Part shown: in pieces, positions 996-47,730 of the stretch
Position numbering within the stretch: position 1 is the stretch's first letter
Layout: each line of letters opens with the position of its first letter
The notes under the pieces: model-generated
What the model was told of the DNA's origin: nothing
Databases searched by the model: none
What the model saw: only the letters and a program-made list of their open reading frames with translations
IMG/VR virus record: IMGVR_UViG_2896054739_000007
Span: 64,001 to 128,000 of that record
DNA length: 64,000 bases
Origin: a virus
Taxonomy: Duplodnaviria > Caudoviricetes
Reading direction: 5' to 3' (one strand)
Translations under genes and position numbers: made by a program

Positions 996-1172
996 TTACT
1001 TTACTTCAACTGAAAGAATATTATTTACTAATTTCATTCTAATTTCATCATTTGCAAATGCTTTCATAAATGCTTCGAGAATAACATTTTGAGGTATTCC
1101 AGATTGATTACATTTGTCCTTAAAATCTCTTTGAATATTCTCTTCAATTGAACTTGTAAAGGCTTTTCTCAT
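996..1172 (-). CDS. Small ribbon-helix-helix-like DNA-binding protein (58 aa, not in ORF track)
   Basis: GGAGG RBS; MRKAFTSSIEENIQRDFKDKCNQSGIPQNVILEAFMKAF. Confidence 0.6.
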   Translation of the reverse strand: MRKAFTSSIEENIQRDFKDKCNQSGIPQNVILEAFMKAFANDEIRMKLVNNILSVEVK

Positions 1173-1549
1173 TTATTTCTACCTCCTTTACATTTATAAT
1201 TGTACACCATTTATATATGTTTGTTAACCATAAATCCTATAATAACAAAAGACACTGTATATTTCTATACAATGCCTTAAAATTATTTTTCTGATATTAA
1301 CTTACTCATTGTCATTAAATAAGTCTTCACGCCACTGAATAGGAACAACATCTTTTAAAGCCTCCTCTGATGATATAGTACCTATTTTTCTATTTTCTAA
1401 TTTAGACATATTTATTTTTCTATTCACTTCCCTCAAAGAAGCTTCTAATTCAGATAAGAAAATATCTTTATTATATTCAATATCTTCACTTATCATAAAA
1501 TTCTCCTTTTTAAAGGAATGGAATGTCAGTCCTTTTCAGTTTTTATCAC

Positions 1550-25786: not shown

Positions 25787-25885
25787 AAAAGCACAATTAT
25801 TTTTGGCTGGGCGGTGTATCCAGCATCTCAGGTACTCTTGCGAGTGTGTCGGGAACCATTTCCGACCTCAAAAATAATCATGCTT
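25787..25885 (-). ncRNA. Putative small structured RNA downstream of PBECR nuclease
   Basis: Own promoter TTGACA(25942-37)-17-TATATT(25919-14); long closing stem AAGCATGATTATTTTTG/CAAAAATAATTGTGCTT enclosing several hairpins. Confidence 0.65.
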
Positions 25886-41485: not shown

Positions 41486-43996
41486 ATGGCTGGAATTAGC
41501 GTACCTCAATATGAGATTTTTAAAATAGGAACTAATAAACTTAAATATTATAATTGGGATTTAAGTATTACAAAAAAAGATGCATTCAAATTCCAGGAAT
41601 TAGTGTCATTGTTTGAAGCACAGGAATTTCGTATAATGGCAAATAAAATTCTAAAACAAGAGATTTCAGAAATTGATTTCTCAAAGATATTTATACAAGT
41701 GGTTATAGATAAGAAATCAGATTTTGGTCGAGCTACTTGTAAGAAAGGCGTAACAGTTAATGGAATAAATTATCGTAGATTTGTAGGAACAACTGGAGGA
41801 TTAAAAAATAACACTCTTCTATTTTGTAATTCAAAATACATAGATGAATTAAATGAACTTTGCGAATGTAAAAGAAATAAAAGTATTCCACTTGTTCCAG
41901 CGAAATACGAAGCATATAAAGCACTGACTTGTTCAGCATCTCAACCAATTTGTATTCCTAATGGAATTTTGGTTGTAAAGGATTGTGTTACACAATATTT
42001 TGCAGATGTAATATCTTTAGATGATGGTAAAGATTCTGATGAACCTGTTATGGAAACAGTATTCCATAAGCAGCTTGAAAATACTGTATCAGATGGTTTT
42101 AATATATGTACCATTGAATATATGAAACGAGTATCCGAATTTTTAGGATTAGATTATATACCAAGTGGTGTTTGTTTAAGAAATGCGTGGTTAAAAGGAA
42201 TGCTCTATCCGTTTCCAATTCTTGAATTTGTTGAAGAATTTAATAATGGTAATTACTTTATAGAAGATATTTGGGGAAATATTCAGGATATTCGTGAATG
42301 CGAAATGATTATAACTGAATCATCTCTTAAACTATGGATGGCTTATGATAATATTGAAAGTTACGAAAATGCTTATAAAGAATGCGGCTATGGATTTTCT
42401 GTAACTAAAATATCACCTTATATATTAGAAGAACAACGAGAACTGAATTATCAGTATTTACAGTCGTATGAATTTACAGATGATGATATAGAAGAACTTT
42501 GTACACCCACAATAAACTATTTGAAAGATGCTATGTGTGGTGACTACGCTTCCACTGTTAAGTTTTTAGGAATTACAGAAAATACAGAAGTTAATTCATG
42601 GCAACGAGCATTATATATAAGTGAATATATGTTGGGTGATCCATATGTAATTGATTCAGTACATAGATTTATTAAAAAGAAAATGAACGATGCTAAGATT
42701 GGTAAATTATTTGTACAAGGTAATTACCAAATTGCCAGTGGTGATCCGTTCGCCTTAATGCAATCTATTTGTGGATTAGAAGTTACAGGATTGCTTAAAG
42801 AAGGTGAATGTTATTCTAAGTTTTGGATTGATAAAAACGAAAATAATGTTGTTGTTTTTAGAAGTCCAATGACAAGTCATAACAATATACGAATGTGTAG
42901 GGTGAATAATGCTGAAGAATGTAAACGTTGGTATCAATATATGGATACTATTATGATTATTAATGCTTGGGATTCATTTTGTATGGCAGAAAATGGATGT
43001 GACTGGGATAGTGATATTTTATTTTCAACAAATAATGATGTACTAAAAAGACGTTATAAGAAACTTCCTGCTATTGAATGTGTACAACGTAATACATCAA
43101 AAATCATTGTTACTGAGGAAGAAGTAAAAAAGACGAATAAAAATGGTATGGGTAATCAGGTCGGTACTATTACTAATTATGTGACATCTATGATGGAAGT
43201 GCAATCACATTTTGAAAAAGAATCTAAGGAATATAAAGAATTGGAATATAGAATTGGTTGTGGACAGCTCTATCAACAGGCAGAATTAGACAAGATTAAG
43301 GGAATTGTTGCAACTCCTATGCCCAGTCGTTGGTATAATATGAGAGCCTGTGCAGATGATAGGTATTTACAATCTATATGCGCATATCGCAAACCATATT
43401 TTATGATTTACATTTACGAAGAAACTAAACGTGATTATAAGAAATATATAAAAGAAAGCAACGATAAATGCTATGCCATATATAACTGTTCTATTCAATA
43501 TTTATATGAAAATATTGATGTTTTATCCGATGAGCAGAAAGAATTTTTATTTTGGTATGAATTTAAAATGCCTGTTGGTATAGGAAAATGTTCAATGAAT
43601 CAAATCTGCCGATATATTGAAAATCAATTAGATGGTTATAAATCTCAATTGCGCAGAAATTCATTATTTGACTATAACACTTTAAAAACAAAAAGACGTT
43701 GCACAGAAGAACATAGACTGGCTCTTAAAGAATTGGAACAATATTATTGTGAATGTGTAAGAGAATACAAAAAACAGAAACATCATGATAAAGGTGAATC
43801 AAATAGAAATAGGCACTTTCTTTATACTAAATTTAATCAAGAAGCAAAAGAAATATGTCCTAATGATGAAGAACGTCTAAATATCATTTTAGACATCACT
43901 TATGGTTATAAAGGAAATAAACAGTTTTGCTGGGATTGTATTGGTGAAAACATTATTTTAAGATTGGAGGAGCTAAACACTGTACATACTAAATGA
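41486..43996 (+). CDS. yonO: YonO-like single-subunit phage RNA polymerase
   Basis: 836 aa; SDG, LRNAWLKG, FRSP and GCDWDSD (DxDxD) motifs of the RdRP-like/YonO two-barrel polymerases; SPbeta-like context. Confidence 0.85.
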   Translation: MAGISVPQYEIFKIGTNKLKYYNWDLSITKKDAFKFQELVSLFEAQEFRIMANKILKQEISEIDFSKIFIQVVIDKKSDFGRATCKKGVTVNGINYRRFVGTTGGLKNNTLLFCNSKYIDELNELCECKRNKSIPLVPAKYEAYKALTCSASQPICIPNGILVVKDCVTQYFADVISLDDGKDSDEPVMETVFHKQLENTVSDGFNICTIEYMKRVSEFLGLDYIPSGVCLRNAWLKGMLYPFPILEFVEEFNNGNYFIEDIWGNIQDIRECEMIITESSLKLWMAYDNIESYENAYKECGYGFSVTKISPYILEEQRELNYQYLQSYEFTDDDIEELCTPTINYLKDAMCGDYASTVKFLGITENTEVNSWQRALYISEYMLGDPYVIDSVHRFIKKKMNDAKIGKLFVQGNYQIASGDPFALMQSICGLEVTGLLKEGECYSKFWIDKNENNVVVFRSPMTSHNNIRMCRVNNAEECKRWYQYMDTIMIINAWDSFCMAENGCDWDSDILFSTNNDVLKRRYKKLPAIECVQRNTSKIIVTEEEVKKTNKNGMGNQVGTITNYVTSMMEVQSHFEKESKEYKELEYRIGCGQLYQQAELDKIKGIVATPMPSRWYNMRACADDRYLQSICAYRKPYFMIYIYEETKRDYKKYIKESNDKCYAIYNCSIQYLYENIDVLSDEQKEFLFWYEFKMPVGIGKCSMNQICRYIENQLDGYKSQLRRNSLFDYNTLKTKRRCTEEHRLALKELEQYYCECVREYKKQKHHDKGESNRNRHFLYTKFNQEAKEICPNDEERLNIILDITYGYKGNKQFCWDCIGENIILRLEELNTVHTK

Positions 43997-44777
43997 GAAA
44001 GAATATATAAGAGACATCTTGGTTTCAAAAAAGAAACCAGACGCTCTCTCTATGGGATATTTCATAACACTTATTGCTAAATACTATTTTTCTGATGAAT
44101 TGAATACAAAACAATTATCTAATATTGTTAAAGAGAGAATACTGGCATTTGATTTAGAAAATTATCAAGAATATAAATATCACAATAAAATCGTGAGTAC
44201 ATGTGAAGGTCTATTTAATAATTCTATTGACAGAACATTTAAGGAAAGAGAATACATACCTATATTTGAAAACGAGTTAAAATTTATCAGTTCATTGCCT
44301 AATGATAGGCAAAAGAAATTAATGTTTACATTCTTTGCTGTTGCAAGATATATGGATTGTGATGGATGGATTAATAAAAAGACTTCAAAAGATATTTCAG
44401 AAGTATTTAAACTTGCAAATGTTACTCTTGCTTCCGATAAGCGAAATGAATTATTACACGAATTATATGCTAATGGATATATTACTTTTGGGAAAAAAGT
44501 TAATAACTTAAATATAAAAGTTAGCTTAGATAATTCTGGAGAGATAAGTTATAAAGTAAGAGAATTTAGTAATATCGGTAATCAATATATCGGCAATTTT
44601 AAAAAGGGTTATAAACAATGTAAAAGTTGTGGCAAAAATTACAGAATTAAATCAGAAAATGATTATTCTAGTAAGTATTGCCAAAAATGTGCAAAAGAAA
44701 AACATAAACAAGTTAATCGTATTTGCATGAAAAAATCAAGAGAAAAGGAAAAAAGTGTACAAAGCCTTGTGTCATAA
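43980..44777 (+). CDS. Hypothetical protein with C-terminal Zn ribbon, coupled to RNAP (probable CTG start)
   Basis: GGAGG RBS at 43966, in-frame CTG; CKSCG..YCQKC. Confidence 0.7.
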   Translation: MYILNEKEYIRDILVSKKKPDALSMGYFITLIAKYYFSDELNTKQLSNIVKERILAFDLENYQEYKYHNKIVSTCEGLFNNSIDRTFKEREYIPIFENELKFISSLPNDRQKKLMFTFFAVARYMDCDGWINKKTSKDISEVFKLANVTLASDKRNELLHELYANGYITFGKKVNNLNIKVSLDNSGEISYKVREFSNIGNQYIGNFKKGYKQCKSCGKNYRIKSENDYSSKYCQKCAKEKHKQVNRICMKKSREKEKSVQSLVS

Positions 44778-44937
44778 AAGTCTTATTTTCCAAGGTTTTC
44801 AAACATTTTTTCAGAAAAAATGTTATTTTCTTTTAATGGTATATAAAGAAAATGACAATAAAATTTATCTTTCCTTGGCAATAAAAGAAAAATAATAAAT
44901 GTAACATAAAATATATTAGTTAAGATAAAGGAGCGAT

Positions 44938-45576
44938 TTGAATATGAGAAAAATAAGTATTACGGAAGCACTTAATGAGTTGAAGTTGTATGATTCAAAA
45001 ATCACAAAGGCAATTACCAACGCTACTCTTTGTGGCGCTGCTAAAAAATCATCTGATAAAGTTGGCGTTGTAAAGAAGGAAGACTTTGAAGATCGTGCAA
45101 AGGCATCTTATCAGTCTGTCACTGATTTAATTGCAAATAGAAACACTCTAAAATCTGCTGTTGTAAAGTCAAATGCAATTACGGAAGTCACTGTTGCTGA
45201 TAAAATTATGACTGTTGCAGAAGCTATTGAGCGTAAAAATTCTATTGAGTATGATGAAACTTTACTTAATGAAATGAAACGTCAATATGCAAACGCTACT
45301 GCTACTGTTGATAAGGAAAATAAGAAAGTGGATGCTAAGGTAGATGATTTACTTACTACTCTTGTTGGGAAAGATTCTGATAAGAAATTGAGTAAAGAGG
45401 ATCAGGAAGCTGTTGAGAAACCTTATAGAGAGAAAAATGAATTTGAATTTGTAGACCCTCTTGGGTTGTATGAAAAGATTCAGACTCTTGAAGCAGACAT
45501 TGATGGTTTTAAGTCTAATGTGGATACGGTGCTTGTTCTTTCTAACGCAACAACCTTCATTGAAGTAGATTTCTAA
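44938..45576 (+). CDS. Coiled-coil protein (resembles DIP1984/DUF6847-like family)
   Basis: ITEALNELK..SNAITEV..MTVAEAIERK..DPL..LSNATTFIE; mostly amphipathic helix. Confidence 0.7.
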   Translation: MNMRKISITEALNELKLYDSKITKAITNATLCGAAKKSSDKVGVVKKEDFEDRAKASYQSVTDLIANRNTLKSAVVKSNAITEVTVADKIMTVAEAIERKNSIEYDETLLNEMKRQYANATATVDKENKKVDAKVDDLLTTLVGKDSDKKLSKEDQEAVEKPYREKNEFEFVDPLGLYEKIQTLEADIDGFKSNVDTVLVLSNATTFIEVDF

Positions 45577-45590
45577 CTTTTAAACTATAT

Positions 45591-45987
45591 TGTAGTTATT
45601 ACGAAAACCTAAAACTTACATCCTGTCACCTATGCAGGACATCATAGGTAAAAACAAGATGAAAGTTTAATGCTTTCTAATGAACAAAATTCCAATATTA
45701 TATAGGAATATTCGATAGAATATTTGAATGAAAATTTATCAAATGGTGATAAATTTACATATACAGATTATTGAGATAACATCGTTTACTGCTCAATAGG
45801 TATTTATGTAAATACTTTTGGAAATGAAAATTCAAAACTCAGCATTTAAAACTTAAAACTCACTTGTCAAAATTCTTTATTTGTAAAGTTTAAAATATAA
45901 TTACTAAAATTCGATAAAATCCATGATTGAGTTTTATTCGTGTTGTGTAATTGACGATTAGGTTTGTACATGGCTGTAATAACTACA
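45591..45987 (+). ncRNA. Large structured ncRNA (~400 nt), family unassigned
   Basis: Perfect 12-bp terminal stem, nested stems, pseudoknots, 7-nt periodic repeats, no ORF. Confidence 0.75.
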
Positions 45988-46079
45988 TTAAAATATTTGA
46001 GATTATAAGTATTCTTATATTCATTTCTTATACAGGTGGCGGTACTGCTATTCTAGCGGTATCGTCATTTGTTTCTTTT

Positions 46080-46154
46080 ACGGACTTAACTCAGTATGGT
46101 AAGAGTGGTGTTCTTATAAAGCACTGGTCATTGGTTCAAATCCAATAGTCCGTA
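46080..46154 (+). tRNA. tRNA-Ile(UAU)
   Basis: ACGGACT/AGTCCGT acceptor, ACTC/GAGT D stem, GTGTT-CTTATAA-AGCAC anticodon arm, ATTGG-TTCAAAT-CCAAT T arm; no encoded CCA. Confidence 0.9.
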
Positions 46155-46274
46155 TTTTTTTGTCTGTTTAGTACAAACAGTCCTCCGTAGCCAGGCTCTC
46201 CGTCAATAGCCCACAAATTGTAAAATATTATAGAGTTTAAAATAAAATATACATATGAAAGGAAAATTTCATTT

Positions 46275-46505
46275 ATGGCAAAATCTAAACTAATTTTCAA
46301 AAGAAGTACGACTGATAAATTATCAGTAAAAGGTGTTTTATCAGAGGATGGAACATTTATTACATATACTGATGAAAATGATGTAGAACAGGATGTAAAA
46401 GTAGCTGATTTGTTAAAAGTATTCATCAATCAGCCAATTGAATTTGGAGTAAGTCTTAAATCAGATGAAGATTTAGACTTAATTACGTCGGAAGATGATG
46501 AATAG
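46275..46505 (+). CDS. YonK-like protein
   Basis: LSVKGVL..VADLLKVF..SLKSDEDL; precedes YonJ-like gene. Confidence 0.65.
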   Translation: MAKSKLIFKRSTTDKLSVKGVLSEDGTFITYTDENDVEQDVKVADLLKVFINQPIEFGVSLKSDEDLDLITSEDDE

Positions 46506-46512
46506 AAAGTAG

Positions 46513-47730
46513 GTGGGTATTATTACTGACTTACATAGATTAGAAAATGAGAATGAAGAACAGTTTATATTTAGGCTCGGTTCTGCTAAAGATTCTGGAA
46601 TTCTTGATATGAGTTGGGAAGAAATAGCTACAATTATAAATTCAGAATTCAGGTCTGACGAATCTGAGTACAGGAGCGAGGCAGCATACAGGAAGCCCTA
46701 TCAGCAAGCTAAGAGATATTTAGATGCTAACGCTTTTAAGACTTGTAAAGATGAAGATTCTTATTTTAAAGAGTTACAGATTCAAAAACAAGATATAAGG
46801 AAGGAAAAGCAAAAACTTTTTGATGAGCGTACAGCCCTAAATAAAACATTACGTGAAAATGCAAGAATTGAAGAAGATTTATCCAAATTAGAACGCTTAA
46901 TTAAAGAGAATGGTTCTACCACTCTTCCACTAGTGAATAATTTTATTGCATCTGCTGACAATGATTTATTTATCTGTTTATCTGATTTTCATTTAGGAAT
47001 TGACACAGATAATTATTTCGGAAAATATAATTCCGACATTGCTGCTAATAGATTATCTCAGTATTTATCAAAAATAATTGAAATACAAAAGATACATAAG
47101 TCGGAAAATGCGTATGTCGGTATATTAGGTGATATTCTTAATGGCGAAATCCATTTTACAACGCAATTGGAAAATAGAGAAAATGTCACTGAGCAAATTC
47201 AAAAGAGTGCGGAGTTAATTTCTGCATTTATTTATGAATTGAGTAAACATTTTAGAAGTGTATATATAAATGGAGTGGCGGGGAATCACTCAAGGACATC
47301 ATTTAAGGATCAGGTTCTTAGAGGAAACCGATTAGATAATCTTATACCCTGGTATATAAAAGCAAAATTAGACCATTTGCAGAATGTAATTTTTATTGAT
47401 GATGAAAATTATGATTCTACTATTGCCACTTGCATAATTCGTGGCAATGAATATCTTATGGTACATGGCGATTGGGATAGTTACTCTGAATCTGGTGTGT
47501 CTAAATTGGTTATGATGCTTAATTTCAAACCAAAAGGAATCTTTTATGGGCATTTACATAGATGTTCATATGATGATATTGCAAACGTAAAAATTATTAG
47601 AAGTGGTAGTTTTAGCGGAACCACTGATGATTATACCATTTCTAAGAGACTTAGTGGAAAGCCTTCACAAATGGTTTGCGTAATTGATAATGATGGAATA
47701 AAGGCTTGTTATCCTGTTTCATTAGATTAA
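46513..47730 (+). CDS. Metallophosphoesterase (YonJ-like)
   Basis: SDFHLG, GD, GNHSR, HGD, GHLH. Confidence 0.85.
   Translation: MGIITDLHRLENENEEQFIFRLGSAKDSGILDMSWEEIATIINSEFRSDESEYRSEAAYRKPYQQAKRYLDANAFKTCKDEDSYFKELQIQKQDIRKEKQKLFDERTALNKTLRENARIEEDLSKLERLIKENGSTTLPLVNNFIASADNDLFICLSDFHLGIDTDNYFGKYNSDIAANRLSQYLSKIIEIQKIHKSENAYVGILGDILNGEIHFTTQLENRENVTEQIQKSAELISAFIYELSKHFRSVYINGVAGNHSRTSFKDQVLRGNRLDNLIPWYIKAKLDHLQNVIFIDDENYDSTIATCIIRGNEYLMVHGDWDSYSESGVSKLVMMLNFKPKGIFYGHLHRCSYDDIANVKIIRSGSFSGTTDDYTISKRLSGKPSQMVCVIDNDGIKACYPVSLD

Follow-up and report, generated by a model that had tools for sequence, protein, structure and literature searches.

The interval 45591–45987 on the plus strand of the window (the whole 64-kb stretch of gut-phage DNA that was analysed) is a genuine structured non-coding RNA, confirmed by covariation across distant phages. 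It is also uncatalogued, lying outside Rfam 15 and unannotated in the phage records that we examined. The original prediction, made by eye from the window alone, had coupled this RNA genetically to the gene for a helical protein directly upstream, and the coupling is borne out in all 24 loci analysed, where RNAs of 281–397 nt each lie behind a homologous gene.

Architecture of the RNA

The 397 nt of the window RNA run from the 5′ arm to the 3′ arm of a closing stem, P1, which pairs 45591–45603 with 45975–45987. The RNA starts 14 nt past the stop codon (TAA, 45574–45576) of a 210-aa gene on the same strand (44944–45576; ATG at 44944, alternative TTG at 44938), and no credible open reading frame occurs from that stop up to the next gene, a tRNA-Ile with anticodon UAU at 46079–46155 (plus strand; called by ARAGORN, 65.1 bits against the Rfam tRNA model). 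Within P1 lies P2 (45605–45612 with 45958–45965), followed by an H-type pseudoknot at 45621–45649, whose stem S1 joins 45621–25 to 45635–39 and whose stem S2 joins 45628–34 to 45643–49. The central region, 45650–45824, is filled with lineage-specific hairpins, differs widely in length and is unalignable across the family. It gives way to a heptamer array at 45825–45920, most of which the minimum-energy fold leaves unpaired. An AAAAUCC motif at 45916–45925, invariant in its AAA and CC columns, includes the 5′ arm of a second, crossing pair, PK2, formed by CCAUG (45921–25) and CAUGG (45969–73). Between the two arms of PK2 is hairpin h3 (45938–45957; stem 45938–41 with 45954–57), with a conserved GUAAUUG in its loop. 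The 3′ strands (45958–45987) then bring together the 3′ arms of P2 (45958–65), PK2 (45969–73) and P1 (45975–87), and carry a conserved GGCUG at 45972–76.

P1, P2, the pseudoknot, PK2 and the heptamer tract had all been named in the original prediction, and each was found where it had been placed. The hairpins that it described in the central region are likewise present, but they are lineage-specific and are missing from relatives with RNAs of 281–350 nt; the extra length of the window RNA consists of such hairpins.

Covariation and recurrent pseudoknots

Since both strands fold better than shuffled sequences (z −3.8 and −5.0), folding energy by itself is undecisive. To assess covariation, 24 full RNAs from widely differing phages were aligned with MAFFT, blind to structure and trimmed only at the P1 junctions. 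Taken together, P1, P2, PK2 and h3 pair in 84.0% of the cells of this alignment, as against 57.5% in shuffles and 30–45% when the partners are slid, and the covariation score of 0.652 (0.193 in shuffles) was matched by none of 500 shuffles. Changes on both sides occur in 24 of the 27 pairs; P1, with 91% of cells paired, shows compensatory change in 8 of 10 pairs, and P2, 72% paired in the structure-blind alignment, varies on both sides in all 8. A model-based alignment of 22 RNAs gives pairing of 97% for PK2 and 94% for h3, with covariation in nearly all pairs (4 of 5 in PK2, 4 of 4 in h3). An ornate, pseudoknotted RNA had been predicted from the window, with covariation in the 3′ flanks of protein homologs as its proposed check; the 24 compensated pairs make that check positive, and the claim is further upheld by the recurrence of the pseudoknots.

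The closing stem illustrates this behaviour well. P1 sequences are wholly different between phages and pairing is always kept; most stems are 12–21 bp long, and a mismatch or bulge interrupts a few. The closing G·U pair is retained in 22 of the 24 RNAs and the neighbouring C-G in 20. The retention of the G·U pair, together with the finding that covariance model matches occur only on the strand of the gene, points to the plus strand as the functional one. For the 5′ pseudoknot, an unconstrained finder could not separate real sequences from shuffles, and a geometry-constrained search with shuffle controls was used instead. It recovered an H-type pseudoknot 15–19 nt past P1 in 20 of 24 RNAs, compared with 9.5% of shuffles. 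The stem sequences of this element are unrelated between lineages, compensatory changes are seen among close relatives, and in the T5-like phage Stitch the pseudoknot is present with a longer loop.

A heptamer-phased array in the 3′ domain

The array follows the consensus U-Y-A-A-A-N-N, with units opening at U 45825, 45832 and onward to 45874. Over seven successive units in 22 RNAs, the first position (U1) and the third (A3) are each conserved at 91–100%, so that the 7-nt period noticed in the window holds family-wide. The eighth unit opens a small, poorly conserved hairpin, h1 (45875–45888), which is paired in only 60% of cases across the family and is therefore best regarded as a variable insertion and not as one of the core helices. 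After the seven or eight heptamers come four looser units, with A at 45885, 45892, 45899 and 45906, and these precede the invariant AAA-N-CC motif at the entry to PK2. The information content of alignment columns is autocorrelated at lags 7 and 14 (r 0.46 and 0.39), the invariant array columns are spaced 7 apart, and the period is kept in phages of both Bacillota and Proteobacteria. Of 16 diverse RNAs, 14 have a 3′ domain of 166–178 nt, so that the unit number is constant.

Familiar sources of short RNA repeats do not account for the array: the A-R-N triplets bound by Hfq, the GGA sites of CsrA and the YC sites of Rho each have the wrong period or the wrong motif. An idea suggested by inspection, that the heptamers are complementary to a tRNA anticodon loop, was also set aside, since neither position 2 (usually C) nor position 6 suits the partners that tRNAs with U36 would require. 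An array with two invariant bases in every seven has no described counterpart, and it invites a direct structural answer.

Gene and RNA remain paired in diverse phages

By tblastn, the upstream protein is present in 740 phage records, which include T5-like Demerecviridae, Vequintavirinae, Otagovirus, Bastille-like Herelleviridae, Vibrio phages, Bacillus phage G, Clostridioides difficile phage phiCD211 and Lactococcus 949-like phages. Every annotated phage locus that we examined has the same layout, with 360–640 nt devoid of a credible gene behind the gene of this family, PHROG 1491. A covariance model built from the 3′ domain only (155 positions) matched on the gene strand at E ≤ 0.01 in 22 of 24 diverse loci; scores were weak in Milchi (E 0.12) and Hena1 (E 0.35), both of which have the closing stem and the 5′ pseudoknot. 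The model matched once in the 64-kb window, once in the window's own assembly of 4.7 Mb and once in each of five complete phage genomes (129–498 kb); the matches in the assembly and in the phage genomes all lie just behind the gene. It missed the RNAs of jumbo phage Deimos-Minion and of genome G233, where the frame of P1, pseudoknot and PK2 is visible by eye. Of 399 scored genomes sampled from the host's class, only four contain the protein, and in G043, a closed bacterial chromosome, the RNA lies directly downstream of the gene with a model match.

The genes on either side vary between phages, and gene and RNA stay paired. tRNA genes often adjoin the pair, and several loci have none nearby. 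In T5 the pair consists of T5.085 and nucleotides 43142–43493 of NC_005859 (minus strand), and is flanked by annotated promoters, one upstream of T5.086 and one, for T5.084, directly past the RNA. Nearly all of some 441 T5-like records retain this stretch at 90% conservation or more, and almost all of the records listed leave it without annotation.

Transcription and neighbourhood in the window

The window has no promoter-like or terminator-like site between the gene and the RNA. The only terminator-like site in 44000–46600 is a G·U-rich, 19-pair hairpin with a U-run behind it (46032–46078, plus strand), which is conserved and covaries in close relatives; judged from its sequence, it is likely to be the end, or a processing site, of a transcript that spans gene and RNA. 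On these two grounds the RNA is most likely the 3′ part of the gene's transcript.

Beyond the RNA and the tRNA, 46513–47730 (plus strand) encodes an SbcD/Mre11-like exonuclease (phrog_284, E 3.9e-60). The most similar local order (tRNA, protein, RNA, exonuclease) is found in C. difficile phage phiCD211, where the exonuclease also follows (L007, 3755–4954). The pair had been described as lying next to a phage RNA polymerase, a description that our searches do not support. The neighbour in question, an 836-aa open reading frame (41486–43996, plus strand), has no match in Pfam, NCBIfam or PADLOC, matches only function-unknown families in PHROG, and has as its sole sequence match in the PDB a stretch that resembles the nucleotidyltransferase motif found in CCA-adding enzymes, which is not significant (E 0.21). 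Nor is it conserved beside the pair in other phages.

The upstream protein

The 210-aa protein matches the phrog_1491 profile over its full length (residues 1–209, E 8.7e-68) and has no family match in Pfam, NCBIfam or PADLOC. Its gene is single-copy in its own genome. At E ≤ 0.001 the family comprises 2371 clusters at 50% identity, nearly all members being 205–213 aa long, and its proteins are acidic (median pI 5.5, net charge about −3). In the confident AlphaFold2 model (pLDDT 95.7), long helical hairpins end in short strands. A conserved S-N-A-x-T strand is present twice and contains the invariant residues N77 and N201, a pattern suggestive of duplication within the protein.

Structure and fold comparisons found no known RNA-binding fold in the family. 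The sole solved structure to rise above the helical background is 3KDQ (VIA-align Z 11.3 over 151 residues, rmsd 8.1; Foldseek E 4.6e-3; atlas TM 0.50), and the nearest named family is DUF6847 (PF20935), to which similarity is weak: 3 of 50 relatives match it at E ≥ 0.031, far below the cut-off, and the window protein itself does not match. A distant relationship to the DUF6847/3KDQ family is possible; the 3KDQ protein, from Corynebacterium diphtheriae, is uncharacterised, and at about 150–177 aa proteins of this kind are shorter than the window protein.

The label carried by PHROG 1491, 'tail fiber protein', is probably wrong and, judged from context, looks propagated. Structure searches found no tail-fibre fold, and in T5, KB57 and the window the gene sits among early or tRNA-region genes, outside the tail module. 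A published re-annotation grades T5.085 as 'Unknown', and its knock-down was scored 'Not Fit', that is, neutral in laboratory E. coli (PMC11879866, supplementary file 16).

Comparison with known RNAs

Searches of 45577–46000 against Rfam 15 returned no match even at E ≤ 10, GOLLD and ROOL included, in agreement with the earlier failure to assign the RNA by eye to either of these or to any other family. The models searched also cover OLE, raiA, tmRNA, RNase P and group I/II introns. At gathering scores, the window and 16 homologous phage loci contained only tRNAs, skipping-rope and BsrG RNAs, all outside the RNA described here. We found no description of the RNA or of the function of the protein in the literature, and anonymous bulk catalogues (PMC10690425, PMC8040213) might contain the RNA unnamed.

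Resemblances to three known systems are instructive. With tmRNA and its partner SmpB, the pair shares a length of about 360 nt, paired ends, the order pseudoknot, single strand, pseudoknot, and a small protein gene. However, no tmRNA was found, ARAGORN giving only two tRNAs in the window, and the RNA lacks a tRNA-like acceptor/T-arm domain; its single-stranded part is full of stops and has a period of 7, not 3, and the protein is unrelated to SmpB. The TRAP target leader consists of 11 G/UAG triplets spaced 5–6 nt apart, and the RNA wraps on a ring formed by a homo-oligomer. Our array is similar in having evenly spaced short marks, about 12 U-N-A in number, separated by non-conserved spacers of fixed length, a pattern typical of RNAs that wrap around a homo-oligomer. 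It differs in its 7-nt spacing and in lying within a closed, pseudoknotted RNA behind the gene, whereas that of TRAP is in a 5′ leader. The proteins differ as well, TRAP being a beta-sandwich ring and the window protein an acidic bundle of helical hairpins. The comparison covered the periodic RNA signature, which is present. Like ROOL and GOLLD, finally, the RNA is large, pseudoknotted, phage-encoded and often beside tRNA genes. ROOL and GOLLD form protein-free cages (PMC12286853). In contrast, the present type is smaller (about 290–400 nt) and always behind one protein gene, and it alone has a long, single-stranded periodic array.

A possible ribonucleoprotein particle

Three features, namely a conserved, closed and doubly pseudoknotted RNA on the gene strand, a periodic array of constant length, and a strict one-to-one link to a single protein family across distant phages and changing neighbourhoods, together suggest that protein and RNA form one particle, with the array as a multi-site docking platform. 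We give this reading a probability of about 0.55. The RNA, most likely transcribed as a 3′ extension of the PHROG 1491 gene that ends at the hairpin and U-run at 46032–46078, is closed by P1 and P2, with the H-type pseudoknot towards the 5′ side and PK2 towards the 3′ side. The pseudoknots flank a single-stranded array of fixed length that presents seven or eight heptamers, a small hairpin and about four looser units, and the spaced U-N-A marks may be equivalent docking sites for copies of the protein, or for its two repeat halves, in a manner reminiscent of TRAP. The particle could serve an accessory role in early infection that is tied to the phage tRNA region, either in the upkeep of tRNAs or translation or in counter-defence; we propose such a role on the basis of the frequent tRNA neighbours, the early-region position in T5 and the 'Not Fit' result for T5.085. 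The existence of the RNA, its fold and strand, the array and the tie to the gene are demonstrated; physical binding, stoichiometry and biological role are inferred. A more specific version is offered tentatively: the array would be a ruler of some 12 heptamers, each read at its invariant U and A by one half of the duplicated protein (by six protomers, for example), and the complex would guard or service tRNAs or translation against host defences.

Several observations sit uneasily with a particle of this kind. The acidic protein and its lack of a known RNA-binding fold argue against direct binding, adjacency of the genes equally fits a functional link without physical contact, and G233, with four paralogues, one RNA and a reduced array, misfits a simple fixed stoichiometry. 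The two properties of the protein would be expected if the RNA acted alone or with a host factor and the protein were a mere functional or transcriptional neighbour, whether the RNA were a self-assembling ornate RNA like ROOL and GOLLD, a ribozyme, or a decoy for a single-strand RNA-binding protein or nuclease. An array that is predicted to be unpaired and exposed would suit such activities, as would a large size, two pseudoknots and a location beside tRNA genes, where ROOL and GOLLD are often found (PMC12286853). We nevertheless regard an RNA that works without the protein as rather unlikely: strict one-to-one adjacency with a single protein family, in distant phages and changing contexts, makes a direct link likelier, and Rfam searches found no catalytic core or known motif.

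It is also conceivable that the structure acts in cis, as a 3′ untranslated element that stabilises or autoregulates the upstream mRNA or organises processing of the adjoining tRNAs. Its position directly past the stop codon and apparent co-transcription with the gene agree with this, as do the tRNA genes that come next in many loci and the tRNA nested in the variable region of G233; yet several loci have no tRNA nearby, some 300–400 nt with two pseudoknots and a fixed periodic array exceed the needs of known 3′ stabilisers, and the P1-closed ends suggest a discrete, stable species. We consider a purely cis-acting element improbable. The AT-richness, short repeats and terminal inverted repeat might instead mark an element that works as DNA (an iteron origin, or a packaging or recombination site) or an RNA antitoxin array like those of type III toxin-antitoxin systems, which consist of tandem RNA repeats of about 34–36 nt upstream of an endoribonuclease toxin gene. 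Conserved G·U pairs, pseudoknots and strand-specific model matches favour RNA over DNA, and a 7-nt period is out of step with DNA helical phasing. An RNA antitoxin had been part of the original prediction, and it fits the anatomy of ToxIN-like systems poorly: the units here are 7 nt as against about 36 nt, the RNA lies downstream of the gene, and the protein is all-helical, not ToxN-like, with nothing in PADLOC matching. The knock-down of T5.085, which had no fitness effect (PMC11879866), speaks against DNA element and antitoxin alike, and we hold both to be very improbable.

The RNA is present in hundreds of sequenced phages of Gram-positive and Gram-negative hosts, the 60-year-old model phage T5 among them, and is tied to a single protein family, which exceeds 2000 sequence clusters and whose sole label, as noted above, is probably wrong. 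Strongly covarying large structured RNAs are rare, and most of the known ones have proved to be central machines. If protein and RNA do form a particle, they would constitute a new class of phage ribonucleoprotein common to T5-like, rV5-like, Bastille-like, jumbo and gut Clostridia phages. T5 and E. coli are both tractable, which opens the function of RNA and protein to direct tests. Correction of the annotation would in any case touch the records of hundreds of phage genomes, among them candidates for therapy.

Variant loci

A number of loci depart from the common arrangement. Genome G233, a bacterial genome of the same family, carries on contig 71 four tandem paralogues of the protein gene (one with an internal TAA, one a short fragment with TGA), followed by one RNA (L041, about 1125–1491, minus strand) that has the frame of P1, pseudoknot and PK2 and a heptamer array that looks reduced. 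Inside the central region of this RNA is a complete tRNA-Asn(GUU) gene (L041, 1300–1375). The RNA of the Erwinia jumbo phage Deimos-Minion is 443 nt long (L033, 1711–2153), and its variable region reads like a permuted tRNA-like element, with a T-arm, a capped acceptor-like stem and a D-arm, which neither ARAGORN nor Rfam calls. In an IMG/VR relative with 75% protein identity (L012, 2131–2400), a partial array and a model match (2226–2279, 35.8 bits) persist in the absence of P1, P2 and the pseudoknots, and the locus looks decayed or rearranged.

Other loci differ in what lies around the pair. Aeromonas phage LAh_6 has a gene with a ProQ-like RNA chaperone annotation (L032, 803–1099) immediately upstream of its PHROG 1491 gene, and in this phage the RNA begins 470 nt past the stop codon, compared with about 10–90 nt elsewhere. 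Skipping-rope RNA (RF02924) occurs in the window at a distance from the pair (25798–25876, minus strand, 79.6 bits). In Brevibacillus phage SecTim467, a skipping-rope RNA (L024, 1825–1902, 67.6 bits) lies exactly between the PHROG 1491 stop codon and P1, and a BsrG-like RNA is found downstream at L024 2360–2634.
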